32,220 bases of DNA from an uncultured bacterium (GTDB lineage: Bacteria > Patescibacteriota > Minisyncoccia > Moranbacterales > GWC2-37-73): the NCBI GenBank assembly GCA_903866285.1, contig CAIPMZ010000066.1:1-32220 (forward strand), written 5' to 3'. The notes under the pieces were generated by a model. It saw only the letters and a program-made list of their open reading frames with translations. It was not told the origin of the DNA and did not search any database. A program made the translations under genes and the position numbers. Every line of letters starts with the position of its first letter. Positions within the stretch are counted from its first letter, which is position 1. Of the stretch, positions 2,641 to 31,568 are shown one piece after another.

Positions 2641-3651
2641 ATGATTACCAATTCCGAAGAACAAATTGAAGATGTCTCCCTAGATAACACCCTCAGGCCG
2701 CAAAGGCTGTCGGAATATGTTGGCCAGGAAAAAATTCGCAAAAATTTGCAGATGTTTATTGACGCTGCCAAAAAAAGGGGTGAATCAATTGAGCATGTGC
2801 TTTTGTATGGACCGGCAGGGCTTGGCAAGACCACGCTGGCGCATATTATTGCCAATGAAATGGGCGTGAACATCAAAATCACTTCTGGGCCAGCTATTGA
2901 AAGAGTGGGCGACCTGGGCTCAATTTTGACGAACTTACAAGATGGCGATGTGCTTTTTATTGATGAAATTCATCGCCTCAACAAGTTGATCGAAGAAGTG
3001 CTTTATCCCGCCATGGAAGATTACAAATTGGATGTAATTATTGGGAAAGGCCCTTCGGCGCGAACTCTTCAACTTGATTTGCCAAAGTTTACTTTGATTG
3101 GTGCCACCACCAGATTGGGCAGCCTTTCCAATCCACTGCGCAATCGTTTCGGGGCAATTCACAGATTGGAATTTTACAATGATGAAGAAATGAAAAAAAT
3201 TATTTCTCGCAGTGGCAAAATTTTGGGCATTTCTCTGGATGAAAGTGGTTCTGGCGAAATTGCGCGCTCTAGTCGAAAAACTCCCCGCGTGGGTAACCGG
3301 ATGATTAAACGGGTGCGGGATTATGCTCAAATTAATGAGCATCCCGTAATTGATAGCGCTATCGCCAGAAAAGCCTTGGACATGATGGACGTGGATCACT
3401 TAGGCCTTGAACCGACTGACCGTTTTATTTTAGAAACCATTATCAAAAAATTCGGGGGCGGGCCAGTTGGAATTTCTACGATTGCGGCGGCCACTTCTGA
3501 GGAAATTGAAACAATTGAAGATGTTTACGAACCATTTTTAATTCAACTTGGCTTTCTAACGCGGACGCCCCGCGGGCGCGTCGTAACCGACAGCGGCTTT
3601 CTCCACATGGGTTATCCGGTGCCTGTCGAGAATCAGAATAAACTGCTATAA
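2641..3651 (+). CDS. ruvB: Holliday junction branch migration helicase RuvB
   Basis: [13 protein letters not shown], Walker [10 protein letters not shown], Walker [10 protein letters not shown] and sensor [16 protein letters not shown], at the full 336-aa RuvB length. Confidence 0.97.
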
Positions 3652-3740
3652 TAAAAATATAAAAAAATTTCTAATATCCAATGCCTAATGTCTAATGAAA
3701 TTCGGTAGCGATATAAGAGAGATAAAATAGAAATAAAATT

Positions 3741-3830
3741 TGTCATCGCGATCCGCCCAGGGCGGAGTGACTGATCCAGAACGTAGCATTGCTCTGGATT
3801 GCCACGCATGATCACATGCTCGCAAAGACA
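3741..3830 (+). mobile_element. MITE-like element family D, copy 1 (90 bp)
   Basis: Termini TGTCATCGCGAT ... CTCGCAAAGACA are inverted repeats. The core GGATTGCCACGCATGAT is shared with copies 2 and 3. It ends 12 nt before the ATG at 3843. Confidence 0.7.
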
Positions 3831-3842
3831 TTATAAAAAACT

Positions 3843-4067
3843 ATGCTCGTTACCATATTCCAAATTCTTTATTTAGTCGTTTTCTTCACGATGTCGCTGA
3901 TGAGCGTCTTTATTGTGTTTCACATTGTTTTCTATGCTTACAGCGCCTTTTCAAAATTAACTATGTTGGCGATTTTTGTGCCAGTTATATTGGTCCTGCT
4001 TTTTACGAACTTTATTTTATTTAGACAAATCCCGCTAGCTAATATTTTTTCAGCGACTTTTCTATGA
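3843..4067 (+). CDS. small membrane protein (two hydrophobic helices)
   Basis: 74-aa hydrophobic ORF whose stop overlaps the next start (ATGA at 4064..4067), suggesting translational coupling. Confidence 0.5.
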   Translation: MLVTIFQILYLVVFFTMSLMSVFIVFHIVFYAYSAFSKLTMLAIFVPVILVLLFTNFILFRQIPLANIFSATFL

Positions 4068-4758: not shown

Positions 4759-6786
4759 GTGAACACAAAGAGAAAAATAAAATACGCGGTTGTATTTTTA
4801 TCACTGGCACTGCCAATTTTTTTGGCAGTGTTTTTTGTTTTTAATGAAAAGGCATGGTCTAGTGAAGGTGGCATAGATAAGGGTGATATTATAATAAACG
4901 AATTAATGTGGATGGGGATGGGTAGCTCCACGAGTGATGAATGGCTTGAGCTCAAAAATACAACAGCCAAGTTAATCAATCTTGATGAATGTCAAACTGT
5001 GAAGGTAATTGATGATAAGGAAATCATAGTAACGGCAAGTTTAAAAGATCAGACAATATCACCCAAAGATTATTTTGTAATATCCTATAAGACAAGAGAT
5101 GACTCGAAAATAAATACTGACACGCACAAGGCACTTTCTTATTTGTCACTTTCAAATACAACCCTAAGGCTTATATTAAAGTGTAGTGGAAATATTATAG
5201 ATACGGCTGGAGACGGAAAAATTCCATTTGCTGGAGAAAATAGTCTTATAAAAAAATCTATGGAGCGAAATGATATTTTTACTGATGGAGCAATGAAATA
5301 TAGTTGGCATACGTGTTCTGTGGCTGAAAATATTGATGCAAATACTACTGACTGTGCAACGCCTGGTGCAGAAAATTCAAAACTCGCAGAAAAAATTCCT
5401 GAGTCGCCAAAAGTTTACTCCGATAAAATTCAAATCACGGAACTTTTCCCTAATCCTTTTCAGGCTCAATATGAAGAATATATTGAACTATATAATGGCA
5501 CGGCGGAAAAGGTTGATTTAGCTGGCTGGACCTTGCACGATGCTTCAAAAACGGGAAAGTATACTTTCCCGGTAGGCTTTCTAATAAAAGCCAAAGAATA
5601 TTTGGCGATTTTTAAAAAAGATTTTAAATTTGCGCTCAATAATTCTGGCGATGAAAGGGTGACTCTTTTTGATCCCAATGGAAAAGAGGTTTCTAAAGCT
5701 TTGTATGACGGTAGCAAGCGAAACCTTTCCTATAACTTCGATGGCAACCGCTGGCGTTGGAGTAAATTTTTAACGCCGGGTGCGGAAAATATTTTAAACA
5801 GTGAGCCGTATGGAACTTTGAAAATTGATGATGATGTGTATGAAAATGTATATGCGAATTTTTCAATTTCAACTGGCGATAGTGATGGCGATAGTGTAAA
5901 AGTGACTTGGGATTTTGGCGATGGGCATAAAAGTTATTTATTAAAAACAAGGCATAAATATCTCGCCACTGGAAAATATTTAGCGAGCGTAAAATTAACC
6001 GATGGCAGCGAGGAGACTTTAAAAGAATTTGAGGTCGAAGTTCAGAAAATTCCGCATCCAAAAGTTGCGCTTGTTGCTGTCAAAGCAAATCCGAAAGGCA
6101 AAGATAGTGAGTTTGAAACTTTGACGATTAAAAATAATTCGAAAAAGAAAATAAATCTCAAAGGTTGGAGCATCGCAACTGGAACTAAAAAGCTTGCAAA
6201 CCACCCAATCAAAGAAAGCGTTGTTATTAAGAAGGGTAAAGCCAAGGAAATCACTCGCCAAGTTTCAAGTTTTTCCTTAAATAATAAAAAGGCGAAAGTT
6301 GAATTGCGTTATCCGGACGGCAAAATTGCCAGCAAATTAAAATATGATCACGGCAAGGTTTCGATTGCGGAAGATGAGGTTTATGAAAAAACAAAAGGCG
6401 GATGGGTTTGGATAGAAAAAATTTCAAATGACAAATCGCAAATTCCAAATAAGAGTCAAGATGCAATAGACAATATACAAAATTCAATAGACAATAGCCA
6501 GGATACAATAGAGGATATTCAAAATACAATAGATAGTGAATGGGAGGGCGAGCGAAAGGGAGTTGGACTCCCTTTGTGGGAGTCCAACTCCCAAGGGGGT
6601 GAGTTGGTAAATATTGAATTATTGAAAAATCAACCAGCTGTACTGGGAGCGGAAATGGTGCGGGAAGTCGGCGGACAATATTTTTTTACCTCACAAGTTG
6701 AGCAGAAACACTACCTGGTTTCGTTTTTTGAAAATCTTCTTGCTAGTTTAAATGTAGGAATGAATCAGATGTTGAATTATTTTTGA
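4759..6786 (+). CDS. secreted or anchored surface protein with three lamin-tail-like (LTD) domains and one PKD domain
   Basis: GTG start and an N-terminal hydrophobic anchor. LTD-like segments are IIINELMWMG..DEWLELKNTT, IQITELFPNP..EEYIELYNGTAEKVDLAGWTL and ANPKGKDSEFETLTIKNNSKKKINLKGWSI. The PKD motif is VTWDFGDGH. The C-terminal third is built partly from repeat-derived sequence. Confidence 0.75.
   Translation: MNTKRKIKYAVVFLSLALPIFLAVFFVFNEKAWSSEGGIDKGDIIINELMWMGMGSSTSDEWLELKNTTAKLINLDECQTVKVIDDKEIIVTASLKDQTISPKDYFVISYKTRDDSKINTDTHKALSYLSLSNTTLRLILKCSGNIIDTAGDGKIPFAGENSLIKKSMERNDIFTDGAMKYSWHTCSVAENIDANTTDCATPGAENSKLAEKIPESPKVYSDKIQITELFPNPFQAQYEEYIELYNGTAEKVDLAGWTLHDASKTGKYTFPVGFLIKAKEYLAIFKKDFKFALNNSGDERVTLFDPNGKEVSKALYDGSKRNLSYNFDGNRWRWSKFLTPGAENILNSEPYGTLKIDDDVYENVYANFSISTGDSDGDSVKVTWDFGDGHKSYLLKTRHKYLATGKYLASVKLTDGSEETLKEFEVEVQKIPHPKVALVAVKANPKGKDSEFETLTIKNNSKKKINLKGWSIATGTKKLANHPIKESVVIKKGKAKEITRQVSSFSLNNKKAKVELRYPDGKIASKLKYDHGKVSIAEDEVYEKTKGGWVWIEKISNDKSQIPNKSQDAIDNIQNSIDNSQDTIEDIQNTIDSEWEGERKGVGLPLWESNSQGGELVNIELLKNQPAVLGAEMVREVGGQYFFTSQVEQKHYLVSFFENLLASLNVGMNQMLNYF
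6558..6592. repeat. hairpin family A-like copy inside the LTD protein CDS
   Basis: GGGAGTTGGACTCCC-TTTGT-GGGAGTCCAACTCCC: perfect 15-bp arms and a 5-nt loop, translated in-frame as ...GVGLPLWESNSQ... Confidence 0.8.
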
Positions 6787-16574: not shown

Positions 16575-16902
16575 GATATGGATAATTTAATTTTTTCTGT
16601 GCTTAGTTGGATTAATAATTTGAAATTTAAAATTTAAAATTTGAATTGAATTTAAAATGTTTTAATTTTTTAAATTTTAAAATTTAGGCATTGATTTCAA
16701 ATTTAAAATTTCAAATTCCAAGATCCGAAATTACAAATCGTTTGAATGTTTGAGTTTTGATTGTTGAATTTTGTTTGCCTGCCTGCCGGTAGGCAGGGTT
16801 ATTGTATCTTGGTTATTGTATCTTTTACTTTGTATCTTTAGAAATTTATTTTATTTAAAAAGATGTGTTACATGCTCTATGTTTCATGTTTTGTGAAATT
16901 TT
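16575..16902. repeat. family E mosaic block with a CCTGCCGGTAGGCAGG hairpin and TTGTATCTT repeats
   Basis: 16741..16839 matches the reverse complement of 31322..31452. Confidence 0.85.
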
Positions 16903-17559
16903 ATGAACAACGTCAGTCCTCTTATCAATTTTTTTATCCAGCAGGGTGTGCCGTTGGAAACGGTTATCCTGCTTTTAATGTTGCCGGTGGTGGTAACGTT
17001 GATTGCTTTTTTCCGCCAGATAGTCGGGATTAAGGCTTTTGGCATTTATACGCCAGCGATTGTGACTTTCGCTTTTTTGGCTGTGCCTCAGCTTCGTTAC
17101 GGCGTAGTAGTTTTTGTCAGCGTTATTTTAGTCGGGATGCTGATGCGCTTTGTGCTGAAAAGTTTTCGCATCTTGTATCTTCCGCGCGTCGCCATCACCT
17201 TGAGTGTGATTGCTTTTTCAATTTTGTTTCTGCTGGGGCTGGGTGGCTATTTCCAGCGAACTGGCCTGGCTAGCGTGACGATTTTTCCAATTTTAATTAT
17301 GATTACGATTGTAGAGAAATTTGTCGTAGTTCAAATCGAGAAAGGTAATAAAGCCGCGGTTATTTTAGCCGTGGAAACCTTGGTTATTTCGCTGGCTGGT
17401 TACTATTTAGCAAGCTGGCCAATGCTAATCAAGGGCATCATCGCTTTCCCATGGCTAATTTTGATTACAATTCCAATTAATATTTTCCTCGGCAAATGGG
17501 ATGGGCTTCGCCTCACCGAATACGTGAGGTTTTGGGAAGTATTGAAGAATCTCAAATAG
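16903..17559 (+). CDS. multi-pass (about 7TM) membrane protein of the type associated with RimK-like ligases
   Basis: Six or seven hydrophobic helices. RQIVGIKAFGIYTP and GKWDGLRLTEYVRFWE resemble the 7TM module usually fused to an inactive transglutaminase (PF14402). No transglutaminase domain is present here. Confidence 0.68.
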   Translation: MNNVSPLINFFIQQGVPLETVILLLMLPVVVTLIAFFRQIVGIKAFGIYTPAIVTFAFLAVPQLRYGVVVFVSVILVGMLMRFVLKSFRILYLPRVAITLSVIAFSILFLLGLGGYFQRTGLASVTIFPILIMITIVEKFVVVQIEKGNKAAVILAVETLVISLAGYYLASWPMLIKGIIAFPWLILITIPINIFLGKWDGLRLTEYVRFWEVLKNLK

Positions 17560-17697
17560 TCCCTACGAAAGTATAAAATTTTTACAAAAGTACAAATATA
17601 CAAAATCATTTCGCGAAGTATGTCACAGTTGATTTTATATTTGCATGCTTTTATGTTTAAATGATCGTATGATTTTATGTTTAAATGATTACAGAAT

Positions 17698-19128
17698 ATG
17701 TTTGAAGAACTGAAAAATGCGCGGAAATTATTAGGACTCAATGCTCGAAATCTTAATTATATTCGGCCTTATAATAAGAAAAAATCTAAACGCTTGGCGG
17801 ATGATAAAATTTCCAGCAAGCGGGTTTTACGCAAGGCAGGGATTCCTGTGCCGAAGCTTTTGGCGCGAATTAAATCGGTAGAGGAGTTGGAAAGTTTTGA
17901 TTGGACGAGTTTGCCAGCCACTTTTGCGCTGAAACCAAATCGAGGTTTCGGCGGCGGCGGAATTTTAGTGGTATACGGGCGAAAAAAATTCTCAAAAAAG
18001 TTTTTGCAAGCTGACTTGGCTGAAATTCCCGATCCAGTTTGGATAAAATCAGATGGCTCAAAAGTAACCGTGCAGGATTTAAAAAACCAAATTCGTAATA
18101 TTTTAGATGGCGCTTTTTCGCTAGCCAATATGCCGGACACGGCTTTTTTCGAAGAGCGCTTAACTTTGCTAAAATTATTTAAACCTTATGCCTATAAAGG
18201 TATTCCTGATATTCGCGTGGTTGTTTTTAATCGGATTCCCGTTATGGCGATGTTGCGACTGCCAACGAAAGAATCTGGCGGTAAAGCCAATTTGCAACAA
18301 GGTGGTATCGGCGTGGGGATTGACCTTATCTCGGGCGTAACAACTTCAGCAGTGTTGGGCGAAGGAAAATTAATTGACTACGTGCCAGGTACACGGATGT
18401 TGCTTTCGGGGATTCGAATTCCATACTGGAAAGAAATTTTGCTCCTAGCTGTCAAAGCTCAAGAAATCTCGGGGATGGGATTTTTAGGCGCTGACGTGGC
18501 TATTGATCGCGAACGCGGGCCAGTCTTTTTGGAAATTAACGCTCGCCCGGGGCTGGGAATTCAAGTTGCTAATTTAGCTGGTCTGCGCGAAAGACTGGAA
18601 AGAATTAAGGGACTAAAAATAAAAACCGCGGCGCGCGGGGTGCGCGTAGGCCGTGATCTTTTCGGGGGCGAAGTGGAGGAAGAAGTAGAAGAAATTTCTG
18701 GACGTAAAGTGATTGGGACGATTGAAAAAATTAAACTGATCGGTCGCAGCGAAAAGTCCGTCGAGGTTGAAGCTAAAGTTGATACTGGCGCTGGCTTTAC
18801 TTCGATTGATACGGATTTAGCTGAGCAACTTGGCTTTGAAGATACCGTCAGAGAATATCAAAAAATCGAGGCCACTTATAAAGATATCAAACATTTGGAC
18901 AAAAAAGAGCGTTGGGATATTTTTAAGCATATTCCGCATTTGGAAAGTATGGTGGTTATTAATTCAGCTAGCGGCTCAACGTATCGTCCGACGATTAAAA
19001 TTACGGTTATTATGGACGGCGTCACGATTCCAACCAAAGTTACCTTAATTAATCGCGCGCATTTAAAATACCCGATTATTATTGGAAAAAGAAATTTAAA
19101 AAAGTTTTTAATTGATGTCAATAAATAG
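17698..19128 (+). CDS. alpha-L-glutamate-ligase-related ATP-grasp enzyme fused to a C-terminal retropepsin-like domain (the family annotated as ATP-dependent zinc protease)
   Basis: Opening LGLNARNLNYIRPYNKKKSKRLADDKISSKRVL, and ATP-grasp blocks ALKPNRGFGGGGI and VFLEINARPGL. The C-terminus, EAKVDTGAGFTSID...RPTIKITV...LINRAHLKYPIIIGKRNLKKFLIDV, matches PF05618-type domains. Confidence 0.8.
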   Translation: MFEELKNARKLLGLNARNLNYIRPYNKKKSKRLADDKISSKRVLRKAGIPVPKLLARIKSVEELESFDWTSLPATFALKPNRGFGGGGILVVYGRKKFSKKFLQADLAEIPDPVWIKSDGSKVTVQDLKNQIRNILDGAFSLANMPDTAFFEERLTLLKLFKPYAYKGIPDIRVVVFNRIPVMAMLRLPTKESGGKANLQQGGIGVGIDLISGVTTSAVLGEGKLIDYVPGTRMLLSGIRIPYWKEILLLAVKAQEISGMGFLGADVAIDRERGPVFLEINARPGLGIQVANLAGLRERLERIKGLKIKTAARGVRVGRDLFGGEVEEEVEEISGRKVIGTIEKIKLIGRSEKSVEVEAKVDTGAGFTSIDTDLAEQLGFEDTVREYQKIEATYKDIKHLDKKERWDIFKHIPHLESMVVINSASGSTYRPTIKITVIMDGVTIPTKVTLINRAHLKYPIIIGKRNLKKFLIDVNK

Positions 19129-19135
19129 TTGGTGT

Positions 19136-20074
19136 ATGAAAAAAATTCTTTTTATTGGGATTGGTAAAGAAGAAAATCAAAAACAGCGCATGCTTAAGGC
19201 TCTCGTTAAGGCTGGGGTAGGCTGCGTTTATGTTAAATGGTCAGAGTTAGCCTTTTTGGGCAATAAGCTTTACGCACAATCTAAGGAAATCGATTTAAAG
19301 CAATTTGGAGCCGTGTTTTTTGATACACCAAGGTTTACCGTTAAATCAGTAAAGAGTAATAAAAAAATAGCTTTTAACTTGGGAAATGAGTTGCAACTTT
19401 TATTGACAAGCTTGAAAGAAAACAATGTTTATACCTTAAACCAAGATTTTTTTCTCAAATATCCTTATTATAATAAATTTTCCCAGGCTTATATTTTTGC
19501 AAGTAATGAAATTCCTTCCATCCCAACCCTGCATCTAGCTGATAATAAGGTTAGTAAAATTTCGGAAATTTTAATTGAAAAGAATTTTAATTTTCCAATC
19601 ATAGTAAAGGAAGGCTATGGCGAGGGTGGCGAAGGCGTTTGGAAGCTTGATAATCAGCTTGAACTAAACAGTTTTATCGCCAAGCGAAGAAGCGAAAATC
19701 TTATCTTCCAACCTTTTATAAAAAATGATGGTGATTATCGGGTGATTGTTGCGAATGGGAAATGTCTAGGGATTATGAAACGGAGCGCTCAGGGTGGTGA
19801 GTGGAAAAATAATTTTTCGTTGGGCGGGGAGGTTGCAAGACATGAGGATGAAGAAATGAAAAAGTTTGCGGTTAAGGCTTGCCAGAAAATGAAACTGGAT
19901 ATGGCTGGTCTGGATATTTTTTCTACGCCAACGGGCTTTTTAGTAATTGAGGCTAATTTATTTTTTGGACTGGACGGTTTTGAATCTGTTTTTGAAGAGC
20001 TAGACGTTTCAGCGGAAATAGTTAAAATGCTGGTTGCAAAACTGGAAGAAGACAATGGGCAAGAAAGTTTTTAA
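19136..20074 (+). CDS. RimK-like ATP-grasp ligase
   Basis: PIIVKEGYGEGGEGVW, QPFIKNDGDYRVIVANGKCLGIMKRSAQGGEWKNNFSLGG and AGLDIFSTPTGFLVIEANL. I chose the ATG at 19136 (MKKILFIGIG) over the TTG at 19112, which overlaps the upstream stop. Confidence 0.75.
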   Translation: MKKILFIGIGKEENQKQRMLKALVKAGVGCVYVKWSELAFLGNKLYAQSKEIDLKQFGAVFFDTPRFTVKSVKSNKKIAFNLGNELQLLLTSLKENNVYTLNQDFFLKYPYYNKFSQAYIFASNEIPSIPTLHLADNKVSKISEILIEKNFNFPIIVKEGYGEGGEGVWKLDNQLELNSFIAKRRSENLIFQPFIKNDGDYRVIVANGKCLGIMKRSAQGGEWKNNFSLGGEVARHEDEEMKKFAVKACQKMKLDMAGLDIFSTPTGFLVIEANLFFGLDGFESVFEELDVSAEIVKMLVAKLEEDNGQESF

Positions 20075-20097
20075 ATAGTACGTTAATAGGTTAGAAA

Positions 20098-20205
20098 TTT
20101 TACGAGCTTATTTACTTTTTAGAGCCCGCACTTGACCGAAAACAATGGTCAAGTGCTTAACTCGCTGTCGCTCATATGGCCTAAAAAGCAAATAAGCTCG
20201 TAAAA
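20098..20205. repeat. 108-nt long-hairpin element (25-bp terminal inverted repeats, inner 10-bp hairpin)
   Basis: TTTTACGAGCTTATTTACTTTTTAG pairs with CTAAAAAGCAAATAAGCTCGTAAAA (1 mismatch). The inner hairpin is GCACTTGACC-N9-GGTCAAGTGC. Confidence 0.75.
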
Positions 20206-20284
20206 ATTCAGAAGTAATCTTTAGCTAGAGTTGTATACTGCGCATGTCTCGGGAATGCTCGTAATTTTTTAAAAAAACAGGGTA

Positions 20285-21226
20285 ATGAAAAAAGTAATGA
20301 TTCTTTTTGGGCGAAGTGACTGGGAAAAAGCGAAACCTTTTGATAATAAGGATTACCAGTATTCCTATGAATATTTTTATGACCTGTGTAGGGAGAATGG
20401 GATTCAAATGTATCGGGCTTCGTATCAGTGGTATGACTATGAAAAAAACCTTTTTAAATATGCTTGGATTTATGAAGGGAGTGGCGGCAAATGGCGCAAA
20501 GTTGAAAATATCGAGCCTGATTTGGTTTATGATAAAACGAAATCGCGGGCTGAGGTTTATTATAAAAAAGAATTGATCGCGCAGACTTACCCTTTCATTA
20601 ATGATTTAAATTTTACTAAAATTGTCGACGATAAGTTTGTGACCAGTTTAATTTTTCCGCAGTGGTCGAAAAAAAGTTATTTAATTAAAACCAAGGCAGA
20701 TTTAGAAAAAATTCTGCCAAAGTTAAAAACCGCTAAGGTGGTAATTAAACCCTTAAGCGAAAGTGGTGGGAAAGGGGTGCAACTTCTGGAAAAAACAGAA
20801 CTTGAAAAAGTTGAGTTTAGCGGCGAAAATCTGGTGCAGGAATTTATTGATTCGGCCAAGGGCGTGCCGGGAGTTAGCGTTGGTATGCACGATCTGCGCT
20901 TGGTTTTTGTTGGCGAGAAATTAAGTTATGCTTATCTGCGAGAGCCGAAAGTGGGAAGTTTCCTAGCTAATTTAGCCCAAGGCGGAAAATTAACTATTGT
21001 GCCCGTGGAGAATTTGCCAAAAGCTTTAGCGCCAATTGTCGAATTTATTAATGAAACTTTTAGTTCTTTTCCTGACCGAATTTTTGCGATTGATTTTATG
21101 TTTGATGAAACTGGCCAGCCTTGGATTGTAGAACTTAACTCCATGCCCGGACTTTTTTTCTCCCCGGAGGAAAAACCGTATATGATTGAAATGTATCAAG
21201 AGCTGCTGAAGGTTTTTAAAAAGTAA
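20285..21226 (+). CDS. third ATP-grasp ligase (YheC/D- or TTL-like)
   Basis: VVIKPLSESGGKGV, VQEFIDS, HDLRLVFVGEKLSYAYLREPKVGSFLANLAQGG and FAIDFMFDETGQPWIVELNSMPG. Confidence 0.65.
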   Translation: MKKVMILFGRSDWEKAKPFDNKDYQYSYEYFYDLCRENGIQMYRASYQWYDYEKNLFKYAWIYEGSGGKWRKVENIEPDLVYDKTKSRAEVYYKKELIAQTYPFINDLNFTKIVDDKFVTSLIFPQWSKKSYLIKTKADLEKILPKLKTAKVVIKPLSESGGKGVQLLEKTELEKVEFSGENLVQEFIDSAKGVPGVSVGMHDLRLVFVGEKLSYAYLREPKVGSFLANLAQGGKLTIVPVENLPKALAPIVEFINETFSSFPDRIFAIDFMFDETGQPWIVELNSMPGLFFSPEEKPYMIEMYQELLKVFKK

Positions 21227-24196: not shown

Positions 24197-24273
24197 GCTA
24201 AGAAAAGTTTGTTTAAAATAATTTTTTAGCGAGCCCATGCTGCATGTTTCATGTTTCATGTTCTATGTCTTCA

Positions 24274-28516: not shown

Positions 28517-29638
28517 ATGGAAAAGAAGCTCGAAAATTTAGAATTTTTGCAGTCGGCGCTCTGGCGTCAATTTCAGACTAGCGTGGGACGCAAAACTTTT
28601 TGCTTAGAGCGTGAAGGTTTTTTGGCGAGCGTGATCGAGCATAGTTTGCCATTAGTGGGGAAATATTGGTATTGCCCGAGAGGACCAGTATTTTTTGCTG
28701 AGGTAAAAAAAAATCTCAAATCTCAAATCTCAAATTCCAATAGGACTCAAATTTCAAATGAAAATCAAAAAGCTGAAATTCAAAACACAAATTCCGAGGG
28801 TGCAATAGAAAACGGAATACAGCAGTTAGTTAAATTGGCTAGGAAAGAAAAGGCGGGGTGGATTAGGATTGAGCCGGAAAGTGAAGAAATGCTGAAATAT
28901 ACAAAGGATGTGCTTGAAGAAATCCGCCCAAGGCGGACTGATTACAGAATCGTCAAGGCTCCGCATGATATGCAACCAAAAGAGATTTTCGTGATTGATA
29001 TTACGAAAGATGCGGAAACTTTGCTAAGCGAAATGAAACCGAAGACGCGGTATAATATTAGGCTTTCACAGAAACACAAGGTTTCCGTGAAAGCAATTTC
29101 CAATTTCCAATTTCCAATTTCCAATGAATATGTGGAAGCTTTTTTGAAACTTACGAAGGAAATGGCGAGCCGCCATGGAATTACGGCGCATCCGGAGCAG
29201 TATTACCGTAAGATGCTTGAGACCTTACCAACTGAGATGCTGAAAATTTACGTAGCGGAGTTTGAAGGGAAAATTATTGCGGCTAATTTAGTTTTATTTT
29301 ATGGTAAAACCGCGACTTATTTGCATGGCGCTTCTGGCAATGAACAGCGCAAAGTGATGGCGCCATTTCTGCTTCAATGGCAAGCCATTTTAGATGCAAA
29401 AGAATTGGGTTTTGAGAAATATGATTTCGGAGGTATCAAAACAATGTCCAATAATCAACAGTCAACAGACAATAAAAATACTTGGGAAGGGATTACGACG
29501 TTTAAACTTGGATTTTCGCCGAATACTACGCCGGTTCAGTTTCCAGGCAGTTATGATATTGTTGTTAATCCTAGGAAATATGGGGTGTATCGGGGATTGC
29601 AGAGAGCGAAGGGGTTAATGGTTAGGTTTAGAAAATAA
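28517..29638 (+). CDS. FemAB-family peptidoglycan peptide-bridge aminoacyltransferase
   Basis: FLQSALWRQFQ, YWYCPRGPV, KPKTRYNIRLSQK, ATYLHGASGNE and APFLLQWQAILDAKELGFEKYDFGGI. I chose the ATG at 28517 because a terminator hairpin (28448..28490) lies inside the TTG-28439 extension. Confidence 0.85.
   Translation: MEKKLENLEFLQSALWRQFQTSVGRKTFCLEREGFLASVIEHSLPLVGKYWYCPRGPVFFAEVKKNLKSQISNSNRTQISNENQKAEIQNTNSEGAIENGIQQLVKLARKEKAGWIRIEPESEEMLKYTKDVLEEIRPRRTDYRIVKAPHDMQPKEIFVIDITKDAETLLSEMKPKTRYNIRLSQKHKVSVKAISNFQFPISNEYVEAFLKLTKEMASRHGITAHPEQYYRKMLETLPTEMLKIYVAEFEGKIIAANLVLFYGKTATYLHGASGNEQRKVMAPFLLQWQAILDAKELGFEKYDFGGIKTMSNNQQSTDNKNTWEGITTFKLGFSPNTTPVQFPGSYDIVVNPRKYGVYRGLQRAKGLMVRFRK
28702..28800. 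repeat. family E-type low-complexity segment in-frame in the FemAB-family CDS
   Basis: AATCTCAAATCTCAAATCTCAAATTCCAAT...CAAATTTCAAATGAAAATCAAAAAGCTGAAATTCAAAAC, translated as KKNLKSQISNSNRTQISNENQKAEIQNTNSE. Confidence 0.75.
29093..29125. repeat. AATTTCC x4 module in-frame in the FemAB-family CDS
   Basis: GCAATTTCCAATTTCCAATTTCCAATTTCCAATGAA is translated as AISNFQFPISNE. The same heptamer array occurs in murE at 30968..30991. Confidence 0.8.
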
Positions 29639-29795: not shown

Positions 29796-31256
29796 ATGAG
29801 ATTTATTAAAAAACTGTTTCCCCAATCTTTCAAAAATGTCTATCATCTCCTCCAAGCTCTCTTGGCGAATTTTCGCTATGGTTTCCCTGCCCGCAAGCTT
29901 AAAGTGATTGGGGTGACCGGCACGGATGGAAAAACGACGACGGTGCAGATGATTGCCAAAATCCTGCAAAAAGCTGGGAAAAAAGTTGCCGTGGCTTCAA
30001 CCATTAACTTTGTGATTGACGGTGTGGAAGAAAAAAATCTTTCGCACTATACCACAGAGTCGCCCTTTGCGCTGCAGAAATTTATTCGCCAGGCGGTAGC
30101 AGCTGGTTGTGAGTATTTAGTTTTAGAAACTTCTTCGCATGCCCTTGATCAATACCGAGTCTGGGGGATTGATTTTCAAGTTGCGGTCATCACAAATGTG
30201 ACCAGGGAACATTTGGATTATCACAAAACGATGGAAAAATATCGAGCGGCGAAGAAAATCCTTTTCGAAAATGTGGCAAAAAAAATATCAGTCATCAGTC
30301 ATCAGCCTGCCTCGTCGGCAGACAGGTCATCAGCAATTATTGTTAACGCTGATATGGAGAGACCAGCGGAATTTCTCAATTTTGATGTCAGTAAAAAGTT
30401 TGTTTATTCAGTTAAGGGTAATCAATTACCGATGACAGATGACCGATTGCAATATGTTTATGCGGAGGAAATCGAACTTGGAATAAGTTATTCAAAATTC
30501 AAAATTCAAAATTCAAAATTTGTGTTAAATGTCCCTGGACTTTTCAACGTCGAGAATGCCCTGGCAGCTGTCTGTGTGGCCCTGGGTGAGGGGATTGATT
30601 TAGCCCAGGCAAGTGAAGCTCTTTCGGAAATAAAAGGCGTGGCAGGGCGAATGGAGGCCGTAGAGAACGATTTAGGGGTCAATATCTTAGTTGATTTTGC
30701 CCTCACGCCTAATGCCCTAGAAAAGCTTTACAGCTTACTTTTCAGCGTTAAAAAAGAAGGCGCTAAAATTATTGCGATTTTAGGTTCTTGCGGCGATCGC
30801 GACCAAGGAAAAAGGCCTCTAATGGGCGAAATTGTAGCCAAATATGCCGACCTGATTATACTAACTAACGAAGAGCCTTATCATGAAGAACCGCAAGCGA
30901 TTATAGATCAAATATTTGTGGGAGTCATAGCTGAAGAAAAATGTGAGAATGCTGAGTCAAATGGTTCTTCCAATTTCCAATTTCCAATTTCCCTGCCTAC
31001 CGGACAGGCAGGCAATTTCCAAATAAACCCAAATGACCAAATTTCAAAACCTAAGAAAAAAATGGTTGAAGGGGAAAATTGTTGGAGAATTTTGGATCGT
31101 CGGCAGGCGATTGCTAGGGCGCTGTCGCTTGCTAAAAAAGATGATATTGTTTGTATCACCGGGATGGGAAATTTTGAAACGATGGTCGTCGGCGATGAAA
31201 AGTTGCCTTGGAATGATCGAAAGGTGATTGAAGAGGAACTGGGGAAAATACAATAA
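29796..31256 (+). CDS. murE: Mur ligase, MurE-like (UDP-MurNAc-tripeptide synthetase)
   Basis: IGVTGTDGKTTT, LVLETSSHAL, AVITNVTREHLDYH, GLFNVENALAA, GRME, VDFALTPNALEKL, GSCGDRD and ILTNEEP. It contains three repeat-derived in-frame insertions. Confidence 0.85.
   Translation: MRFIKKLFPQSFKNVYHLLQALLANFRYGFPARKLKVIGVTGTDGKTTTVQMIAKILQKAGKKVAVASTINFVIDGVEEKNLSHYTTESPFALQKFIRQAVAAGCEYLVLETSSHALDQYRVWGIDFQVAVITNVTREHLDYHKTMEKYRAAKKILFENVAKKISVISHQPASSADRSSAIIVNADMERPAEFLNFDVSKKFVYSVKGNQLPMTDDRLQYVYAEEIELGISYSKFKIQNSKFVLNVPGLFNVENALAAVCVALGEGIDLAQASEALSEIKGVAGRMEAVENDLGVNILVDFALTPNALEKLYSLLFSVKKEGAKIIAILGSCGDRDQGKRPLMGEIVAKYADLIILTNEEPYHEEPQAIIDQIFVGVIAEEKCENAESNGSSNFQFPISLPTGQAGNFQINPNDQISKPKKKMVEGENCWRILDRRQAIARALSLAKKDDIVCITGMGNFETMVVGDEKLPWNDRKVIEEELGKIQ
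30287..30335. repeat. ATCAGTC repeats plus CCTGCCT..CGGCAGACAGGTC module in-frame in murE
   Basis: The hairpin module differs by only a few bases from the intergenic copy at 31384..31405. Translated as ISVISHQPASSADRSSAI. Confidence 0.8.
30491..30519. repeat. TTCAAAA x4 module in-frame in murE
   Basis: TTCAAAATTCAAAATTCAAAATTCAAAAT is translated as SKFKIQNSKF. Confidence 0.7.
30968..31050. repeat. composite E module (CAATTTC x3, CCTGCC-N9-GGCAGG hairpin, CAAATTTCAAAAC tail) in-frame in murE
   Basis: Translated as SSNFQFPISLPTGQAGNFQINPNDQISKP, between the conserved ILTNEEP and RILDRRQAIARAL blocks. Confidence 0.8.
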
Positions 31257-31568
31257 ACAAAAGACAATACCCAGAAAGCAATTTTGAAATAATTAAGATA
31301 TGATAAACAATACTATTTAAATAACCAAGATACAGGAAACATAAAAATAAGAAACAAGATACAAGAAACAATAACCCCGCCTACCTGCCTATCGGCAGAC
31401 AGGTCGGCAGACAGGCAAACAAAATTCAATAATCAAAATTTAAATATTCAAACCCTTTGTTTTTTGGATCTTGGAAATTGAAATTTGTTTGTGATTTGTA
31501 TCTTGGTGTTTGTATCTTGGATGCTGGCTTTTATTTGGTATTTGTATCTTGTATTTTTTGTTTTCTTT
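31257..31568. repeat. family E mosaic block, internally palindromic (CAAGATAC ... GTATCTTG) with CGGCAGACAGG hairpin modules
   Basis: It contains the inverted copy of 16741..16839, plus direct-orientation TTTGTATCTTGG units at 31490..31555. Confidence 0.85.

Follow-up and report, generated by a model that had tools for sequence, protein, structure and literature searches.

In-frame heptamer arrays and a dispersed 21-nucleotide palindrome in a murE-type gene of an uncultured Moranbacterales bacterium

Selfish palindromes of at least 100 bp are known to have colonised genes in frame, each in a single lineage, and other small repeats found in frame include MJRE2 of Methanocaldococcus jannaschii (Suyama et al., 2005), the BOX, RUP and SPRITE repeats, BRE, and the GC clusters of the yeast mitochondrial var1 gene. 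In cyanobacteria, the elements SDR1-8 were reportedly described by Elhai and colleagues in 2008 (Genome Res 18:1484) within the heptameric STRR repeats of Nostoc punctiforme and its relatives. These SDRs are said to be 21-27 nt in length, hairpin-forming, often located in tandem heptamers, self-nested, found at filled and empty sites and without an encoded enzyme, and reportedly come only from one cyanobacterial subgroup. The Rickettsia palindromic elements (RPEs) are palindromic repeats of about 105-146 bp that lie in intergenic DNA and also, in frame, within genes, adding 30-50 residues while the genes stay intact, and are confined to Rickettsia (Ogata et al., 2000; PMC3184786). Some of the small repeats named above are listed in the same source (PMC3184786), and miniature inverted-repeat transposable elements (MITEs) are described from Coxiella (PMC5896051). 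REP and REPIN sequences, imperfect palindromes rich in GC and 20-40 nt in length, occur in many extragenic copies with a GTAG or CGTC tag at one end and are thought to be mobile as single-stranded hairpins through the RAYT enzyme (PMC3116915; PMC3733652). Tandem heptanucleotide repeats, finally, are represented by the STRR of Calothrix and Nostoc and by GGGAATC of Xanthomonas (PMC4692102). Here, we describe a 32,220-nt stretch of DNA from an uncultured Moranbacterales bacterium (contig CAIPMZ010000066.1, hereafter the window), in which a murE-type Mur ligase gene is interrupted in frame by tandem heptamers and by a 21-nt palindrome.

Two of three repeat-built segments of this gene, segments 1 and 3, are composed of a heptamer layer and a dispersed 20-21-nt palindrome that probably behaves as an ultra-small, non-autonomous mobile element and is translated and tolerated. 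The palindrome family is GC-rich, with a 7-bp stem and a loop of 6-7 nt centred on CGG or CCGG; its 21-nt form equals seven codons or three heptamers. The exact 21-mer of segment 3, CCTGCCTACCGGACAGGCAGG, is referred to as E. Heptamer arrays are abundant in the Moranbacteria-like clade, in spacers as well as in genes.

The host gene is an open reading frame (ORF) of 486 aa (29796-31256, plus strand), identified by domain, profile and model comparison as a genuine MurE-type ligase, in keeping with the sequence-only reading that had taken it for a Mur ligase. Pfam recognises the Mur_ligase_M (PF08245) and Mur_ligase_C (PF02875) domains, the NCBIfam profile TIGR01085 (murE, UDP-MurNAc-tripeptide synthetase) matches at 366 bits (cut-off, 257), and the AlphaFold2 model aligns with Staphylococcus aureus MurE (4c13) at a template-modelling (TM) score of 0.75 in Foldseek. 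The match to TIGR01085 starts at profile position 71 and that to Thermotoga maritima MurE (4bub) at residue 87; the usual N-terminal domain is largely missing, likewise in all homologues of the clade. These homologues carry the annotation MurE, Candidatus Moranbacteria, and are usually 413-450 aa in length. A profile scan of genome contigs with the MurE alignment returned, among the matches listed, relatives of at most 53% identity.

The sequence-only reading had described three repeat stretches in this ORF, and their positions, their quoted peptides and their stop-free reading are all confirmed. It had further regarded all three as intrusions built of modules, which holds for segments 1 and 3. 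In an alignment of the window MurE with 24 orthologues (identity 92-51%), these two segments lie between conserved Mur ligase blocks, as had been proposed; they correspond to gaps in the basal orthologues, are absent from many others, and are patchily distributed among close ones. Segment 3 is absent from proteins of 72-77% identity (BLASTP), yet occurs in graded forms in others at 64-67%, and at the same position the crystal sequence of 4bub has about 9 residues versus 55 in the window protein. Four stretches of the model have a predicted local distance difference test (pLDDT) value below 50, at residues 1-5, 166-176, 382-417 and 458-469, and the second and third of these coincide with segments 1 and 3. 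Together, alignment and model identify segments 1 and 3 as lineage-specific in-frame insertions in loops predicted with low confidence.

Segment 2 is different. Its array of 4.4 ATTCAAA units (30490-30520, plus strand) encodes SKFKIQNSKF, which alignment and predicted structure identify as a native beta-hairpin whose coding DNA is heptamer-periodic, and not as a product of colonisation. It is not read as an insertion because 23 of the 24 orthologues keep equal length and homologous residues (S-x-F/Y-x-I/V-x-N...F) and because the model places two confident beta strands there (233-237 and 240-244, pLDDT about 88-90). Only the orthologue P0017 has 8 extra aa at this position, and the DNA of another, L085, is non-repetitive and of equal length. 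The expectation that comparison with orthologues and a model would reveal lineage-specific loop insertions was thus borne out for segments 1 and 3 and not for segment 2. As a separate observation, the ATTCAAA array is identical or differs by one base in the orthologous loci L001, L002 and L083, while the codons flanking it differ at about 5 of 30 positions, which hints at homogenisation or constraint at the DNA level. Ten other murE orthologues (P0001, P0003-5, P0009, P0010, P0012, P0017, P0019 and P0022) carry different short modules in other loops, such as NPTGPGNHGA, RRSYAPSVAGEPS, HPELVSGSGFRIPP... and QPKADPPREE, and one such module separates P0001 from the window protein, to which it is 92% identical.

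The DNA of six orthologues (L001, L002 and L083-L086), with codons threaded onto the protein alignment, resolves both insertions into filled and empty forms. In the window, insertion 1 (aa 164-179, ISVISHQPASSADRSS; 30285-30332, plus strand) consists of 2.7 ATCAGTC units at 30287-30305, found by Tandem Repeats Finder (TRF) and by our own scan, followed within the unit ATCAG|TC by the 21-nt palindrome variant CCTGCCTCGTCGGCAGACAGG at 30306-30326, read as PASSADR, after which the array resumes with TCATCAG at 30327-30333. The site is empty in L084, L085 and the basal orthologues. In L002 it holds only an uninterrupted ATCAGTC array of about 4.4 units, and in the window, L001 and L083 it holds that array in an unchanged register plus exactly 21 nt (CCTGCCTCGTCGGCAGACAGG) inside a unit. 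Insertion 3 (aa 378-419; 30927-31052, plus strand) comprises a left flank, 3.6 TTCCAAT (equivalent to CAATTTC) units at 30968-30992 (TRF and own scan), E at 30992-31012, with a 7-bp stem and a 7-nt loop and read as LPTGQAG, and a right flank that includes the right-hand part of a composite module, CAATTTCCAAATAAACCCAAATGACC, at 31013-31040. Here, L001, L083 and the basal orthologues are empty and L002 has three extra aa only. In L085 the flanks are accompanied by about one heptamer, and in L086 there are four TCCAATT units and an exact 21-nt gap in place of the palindrome; the window has heptamer units with exactly 21 nt (CCTGCCTACCGGACAGGCAGG) inside one of them, and L084 has a diverged 21-mer. 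At both sites the empty and filled forms differ by exactly 21 nt. Each murE insertion, as its sequence is read here, is two-layered: a tandem heptamer array, and then a stem-loop palindrome (7 bp, 7 nt, 7 bp) inside one of its units. The two copies are read in different frames.

The same modules recur elsewhere in the window and in its relatives, in agreement with the earlier claim that the inserts share modules with intergenic DNA. The intergenic copy CCTGCCTATCGGCAGACAGGTC to which that claim referred is present at 31384-31405 and is itself part of a nested pair, CCCGCCTA[CCTGCCTATCGGCAGACAGG]TCGGCAGACAGG (31376-31415, plus strand), in which a 20-nt copy sits within the loop of another. A second intergenic 20-nt copy, CCTGCCTGCCGGTAGGCAGG, found by pattern scan, lies between heptamer-like repeats at 16778-16797, with no strand assigned; the genic copies in the window are both 21 nt and the intergenic ones both 20 nt. 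The pattern CCTGCC-N3-15-GGCAG gives 10 strand-wise matches at 5 places in the window versus 0.08 expected. The predicted DNA hairpin of E at site 3 has an energy of -6.1 kcal/mol (z = -3.2) and that of the site-1 palindrome -4.6 kcal/mol. Perfect period-7 arrays of at least 18 nt number 11 in the window versus 0.04 in shuffled sequences; there are none at periods 5, 8, 9, 10 and 12, and 4, 2 and 1 at periods 4, 6 and 11. Two heptamer arrays lie in the neighbouring femAB ORF, one of 4.6 CAATTTC units read as SNFQFPIS (29094-29125, plus strand; TRF and own scan) and one of 3.6 AAATCTC units (28711-28735, plus strand), which lies within a low-complexity insert absent from L001, L084 and L085. 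An 83-nt intergenic repeat, at 31405-31486 and, in inverted orientation, at 16706-16788 (87% identical), adjoins a palindrome copy at both places, suggesting a larger composite intergenic module.

Among the relatives, L085 has an exact E at a different site of its murE (3602), inside CAATTTC units and in a third frame, read as CLPDRQA. The surrounding 69-nt composite of heptamers, E and tail (L085 3582-3650) is 94% identical to that of site 3 in the window. A 37-nt composite from site 1 is also present in the femAB genes of L001 and L083, and the femAB gene of L085 carries (at 2427) a variant of E between caagatacaaaata direct repeats. At a single femAB loop the window reads SNFQFPI, L001 reads SHQPASSADKSSVISH, and both L002 and L085 read ...YLPTGQAG.... 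Furthermore, L084 contains an intergenic exact E, and L083 contains an exact E nested in itself (L083:6-47). Self-nested copies are found in the window (31376-31415), L083, L196, L298 and L300, with nesting mostly within the palindrome loop. Perfect heptamer arrays are a clade trait: the window has 34 per 100 kb and its close relatives 40, against 13 for Moranbacteria-like loci at a greater distance, 3 for loci of other members of the candidate phyla radiation (CPR) and of Chloroflexi, and 1 for viral contigs. In addition, the interval downstream of murE, up to a DUF212 gene, has a different content in each of L001, L002, L083, L085 and L086, with small ORFs, an ABC transporter, Bro-N with AbiEii, a reverse transcriptase resembling those of diversity-generating retroelements with bAvd, or GIY-YIG, and thus appears to be a hot spot for accessory genes.

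The recurrence of the inserts also bears on whether they could be artefacts of assembly or sequencing, such as adapters, chimeras or mis-joins at repeats. In favour of this, the sequence was assembled from a metagenome, and assemblers can be misled by short repeats. However, the inserts are found in independent assemblies from ENA, JGI and NCBI (P0001 at 92% identity, L001, L083 and L084-L086), the flanks of every insert tested continue the orthologous protein in register, diverged copies exist (such as LPTGQTG in the protein P0241), and an artefact is not expected to favour one reading frame. An artefactual origin is therefore scarcely believable.

Farther afield, exact E is present in at least 120 stretches of metagenome contigs, with 121 copies in unique contexts among the matches listed; all figures for E that follow refer to these copies. 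The GC content of their contigs ranges from 0.30 to 0.72, with a median of 0.41. E lies in period-7 arrays of many different units in 5.9% of cases (0.2% of control positions), at the apex of other hairpins with a flanking inverted repeat of at least 6 bp in 5.9% (controls, 0.5%), and near fragments of its own arms or other copies in 14.9% (controls, 2.9%), the remaining contexts including plain unique sequence. E shows a preference for sequences able to expose single strands. The base at flank position +1 is a pyrimidine in 94% of copies, and as this is so for coding and non-coding copies alike, it is a property of the element or its target rather than of coding selection.

Stop-free frames of at least 200 aa contain 51 of the 121 copies (about 42%). 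The host proteins, as read from motifs, resemble IleRS, UvrD, LigA, YebC, TatD, LpxB, an S46 peptidase, a T9SS-type protein and MoaA, of which the S46 peptidase and MoaA alone were assigned by homology search. The S46 peptidase with E groups with proteins of Ignavibacteria and has exactly 7 additional aa compared with 11 homologues. The MoaA with E groups with proteins of Chloroflexota/Dehalococcoidia and likewise has exactly 7 additional aa; P0241, a protein of 96% identity, shares its insert in the mutated form LPTGQTG, while another of 89% identity lacks it. From the murE, S46 peptidase and MoaA cases, the exact 21-mer is a precise indel in at least three phyla, as judged from contigs of Patescibacteria, Ignavibacteria and Chloroflexota type. 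The moaA locus (L253; P0241-P0250) also shows a second, nested pair of 8-residue indels (RPDGR[PQTGARPG]PSG versus RPDGRPSG versus none), which points to another family of small inserts with like behaviour.

A scan of IMG/VR with a degenerate palindrome returned mostly unrelated GC-rich hairpins, with CCGG-centred loops dominating, as well as more nested examples. One IMG/VR contig, L196 (GC 0.59), has at 2700-3980 an ORF that by eye resembles a glucosaminidase and contains three in-frame LPTGQAG copies; nested copies occur in the neighbouring ORF, beside a gene for an M15-type-like peptidase. On the evidence of these copies, the palindrome element is also found on putative viral DNA.

This dispersal is difficult to reconcile with a local origin that involves no mobility, in which slippage on proto-repeats and hairpin-primed template switching create the inserts and similarity between sites reflects convergence under mutation bias. 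Part of the data would suit such a process: heptamers expand and contract in place, the number of units at a single site being about 1 for L085, 4 for L086 and 3.6 for the window; the ATTCAAA array arose within a segment of constant length; and excess heptamer repeats have been put down to slippage (PMC4692102). However, identical 21-mers stand in 121 unrelated contexts in three phyla, two different murE sites share a 69-nt composite, and nested copies exist. Slippage may explain the heptamers and not the palindrome. Convergence on 21 specified bases is not credible, and for the palindrome the proposal is already contradicted; as an account of the inserts as a whole, local origin is quite improbable. 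Accumulation by substitution, in the manner of DNA uptake sequences, was ruled out, as the copies are length-changing indels.

Whether the inserts are translated can be addressed through their reading frames. E can be read without a stop in five of six frames, each of which would hold about 20% of the genic copies under equal tolerance. Instead, LPTGQAG is the reading of 34 of the 51 long-frame copies (p = 6e-13), and several of the rest lie in doubtful ORFs on GC-rich contigs. Additionally, length matters among the family variants on contigs of GC below 0.5: ORFs of at least 150 aa contain 10 of the 14 variants with 21 nt and 5 of the 25 with 20 or 22 nt (p = 0.002). Because a bias to one frame and to 21 nt is expected only if the inserts are translated, their removal is disfavoured, and both biases point to inserts that are translated, retained and tolerated under selection. 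Of the two alternatives raised by the sequence-only reading, a coding-tolerant dispersed repeat and a mechanism that removes the segments, the first is therefore retained and the second set aside. Removal would make the segments intervening sequences, cut from mRNA or protein or bypassed by the ribosome, for which stable predicted hairpins and a position between conserved blocks of a presumably essential enzyme might speak. Such sequences need no stop-free frame, no length divisible by three and no preferred frame, and all three are observed. Moreover, features of introns, inteins or bypassing are absent, Rfam recognises no family in the window, and all known self-splicing units are far longer than 21 nt, making this explanation highly improbable.

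The same one-frame, one-orientation bias, together with the recurrence of the peptides in loops of many enzymes, could be taken as a sign of selection for the peptides: LPTGQAG, PASSADR and the products of the heptamers would serve the proteins as linkers or as motifs at the surface and would have been spread by recombination for that benefit, the palindromy of the DNA being incidental. Against this, 44 of the 121 copies lie in frames of less than 100 aa and 70 of 121 in frames of less than 200 aa (about 36-58%), and other readings are in use (PASSADR/PAYRTGR and CLPDRQA), including in murE itself. Copies are also nested in each other and in hairpin apexes, the hosts have unrelated functions (IleRS, UvrD, LigA, MoaA, peptidase), and close orthologues manage without the insert. 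Selection for a peptide module thus appears improbable, and a dispersed palindrome tolerated in translation remains the preferred reading.

In terms of mechanism, the palindrome lands in heptamer arrays, at the apex of other hairpins, inside loops of further copies and in coding DNA of no special kind. Within genes, selection would retain copies that preserve the frame and add a harmless peptide, and the survivors have the 21-nt form, usually with the reading LPTGQAG and in loops that are variable or disordered. Transposition itself, its enzyme and its intermediate are what we infer, and our guess is an agent that is provided in trans and recognises hairpins or loops of single-stranded DNA. 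Slippage would lengthen the heptamer arrays, which might serve as landing sites; the arrays may be targets of the palindrome (landing pads) or its by-products (footprints). A broader proposal can be put forward only tentatively, namely that the 21-nt palindrome is a currently active, cross-phylum mobile element, among the smallest known, which targets loops of single-stranded DNA at hairpin apexes, in slipped tandem repeats or in the palindrome itself, and that, together with slippage in 7-nt register, it forms a general engine of 7-residue quanta in protein loops, in CPR and beyond.

Several points weigh against mobility and translation of the palindrome. Of 24 ORFs of the 32-kb window searched with Pfam, none was found to encode a transposase, a RAYT or a reverse transcriptase, and an enzyme that could mobilise the palindrome was not identified elsewhere either. 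The available comparisons fit precise excision as well as insertion, and there is no regular target-site duplication, with 7-nt direct repeats flanking 7.4% of E copies among the matches listed. Two empty sites, CCTGCCTG in the S46 gene and CTGCCGGG in moaA, already resemble the left arm of E, and because of this resemblance templated, recombinational or microhomology-guided copying is also conceivable. The case for translation is made by sequence statistics, and copy number in this organism refers to 32 kb rather than to the whole genome. A 7-nt target-site duplication was also considered as the origin of the heptamer arrays and rejected, as the 7.4% of copies with matching 7-mers all lie in array contexts.

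The rest of the window provides the setting of these repeats. The 24 ORFs searched with Pfam include RuvA, RuvB, RuvC, YebC, PBP1A and ATP-grasp proteins. A femAB-family gene and a PBP1A gene lie upstream of murE, surroundings that would fit a role of the murE-type ORF in cell-wall synthesis. A heptamer array of 2.9 CATGTTT units at 24243-24262 overlaps the start codon of ruvA. At 6457-6533, a repeat with a period of 21 nt (CAAAATACAATAGACAATATA, 3.7 units) lies in frame near the C-terminus of an LTD/PKD surface protein (ORF 4759-6786). At 930-1020, a GC-rich and strongly self-complementary stretch ends in CCTGCCCTGGCGGCAGG, within a spacer of 36-40% GC; it has no Rfam match, and Rfam returned no family match anywhere in the window. 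Finally, 16903-21226 contains a 7TM_transglut gene followed by three ATP-grasp genes (RimK-like / ATPgrasp_ST), one with a fused Zn_protease domain, a set that resembles a peptide-modification cluster.

An excess of heptamers (PMC4692102) and in-frame palindromic repeats, as in the RPEs, are already known. What the analysis adds is a 21-nt unit that is identical across contigs of Patescibacteria, Ignavibacteria and Chloroflexota type and that enters proteins as a quantum of 7 residues. The full texts searched contain no published description of the palindrome sequences, of LPTGQAG or of such repeats in CPR, which is not proof of novelty. If the palindrome really moves, the class of smallest mobile elements would widen from a cyanobacterial curiosity to a broad phenomenon, there would be a concrete source for the insertions in loops and the low-complexity stretches that enlarge CPR proteins, and the bias to one frame would amount to a natural experiment on the 7-residue peptides that proteins tolerate. 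On the practical side, heptamer and palindrome repeats can mislead gene calling, alignment and assembly of metagenomes, and perfect heptamer arrays in murE are potential frameshift hot spots.

Compared with the systems described to date, the palindrome resembles REP/REPIN sequences as a short GC-rich palindrome in many copies. It was nevertheless rejected as a member of that group, as no tag is present at flank positions -6 to -1 or +1 to +6, where only the +1 pyrimidine stands out, and as the 51 of 121 copies in frames of at least 200 aa do not correspond to an extragenic element; no RAYT (an IS200/IS605-like Y1 transposase) occurs in the 32-kb window. A MITE was rejected likewise: the element consists of a stem-loop only, and direct repeats flank 7% of copies, those being the heptamer contexts. 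The analogy with RPEs drawn by the sequence-only reading applies to behaviour, since both occur in frame within functional genes as well as between genes, and fails in size and in heptamer embedding. The palindrome has 20-21 nt and adds 7 residues, against about 100-150 bp, RPEs are not tied to heptamer arrays, and even the shared composite is only 69 nt. Five to seven times smaller and in another phylum, the palindrome is ruled out as an RPE.

MJRE2, BOX, RUP, SPRITE, BRE, the Coxiella MITEs and the var1 clusters are alike in forming hairpins and in sometimes lengthening or interrupting an ORF in frame, and the var1 clusters of yeast mitochondria are, in addition, GC-rich palindromes in AT-rich genomes. 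All of these, however, are several-fold longer and lineage-restricted, and we know of none reported with identical sequence across phyla. The heptamer arrays, in turn, share with STRR and GGGAATC repeats a period-7 excess, a mainly intergenic location and a length that varies between relatives. Unlike those, the units in the window are AT-rich and highly varied, also lie in frame in enzyme genes and host the palindrome.

The SDRs differ from the palindrome in their hosts, as the palindrome occurs in Moranbacteria-, Ignavibacteria- and Chloroflexota-like contigs and the SDRs reportedly in the Nostoc-related subgroup. To our knowledge, the description of the SDRs includes neither a heavy in-frame presence in housekeeping genes nor a bias to a single frame. 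The two are alike in size class (20-21 versus 21-27 nt), in the predicted hairpin, in heptamer embedding (at both murE sites, and in 5.9% of E copies versus 0.2% of controls among the matches listed), in self-nesting, in the presence of filled and empty sites and in the lack of an encoded enzyme. Likened by description rather than by sequence, the palindrome is therefore closer to the SDR and heptamer elements of cyanobacteria than to the RPEs.

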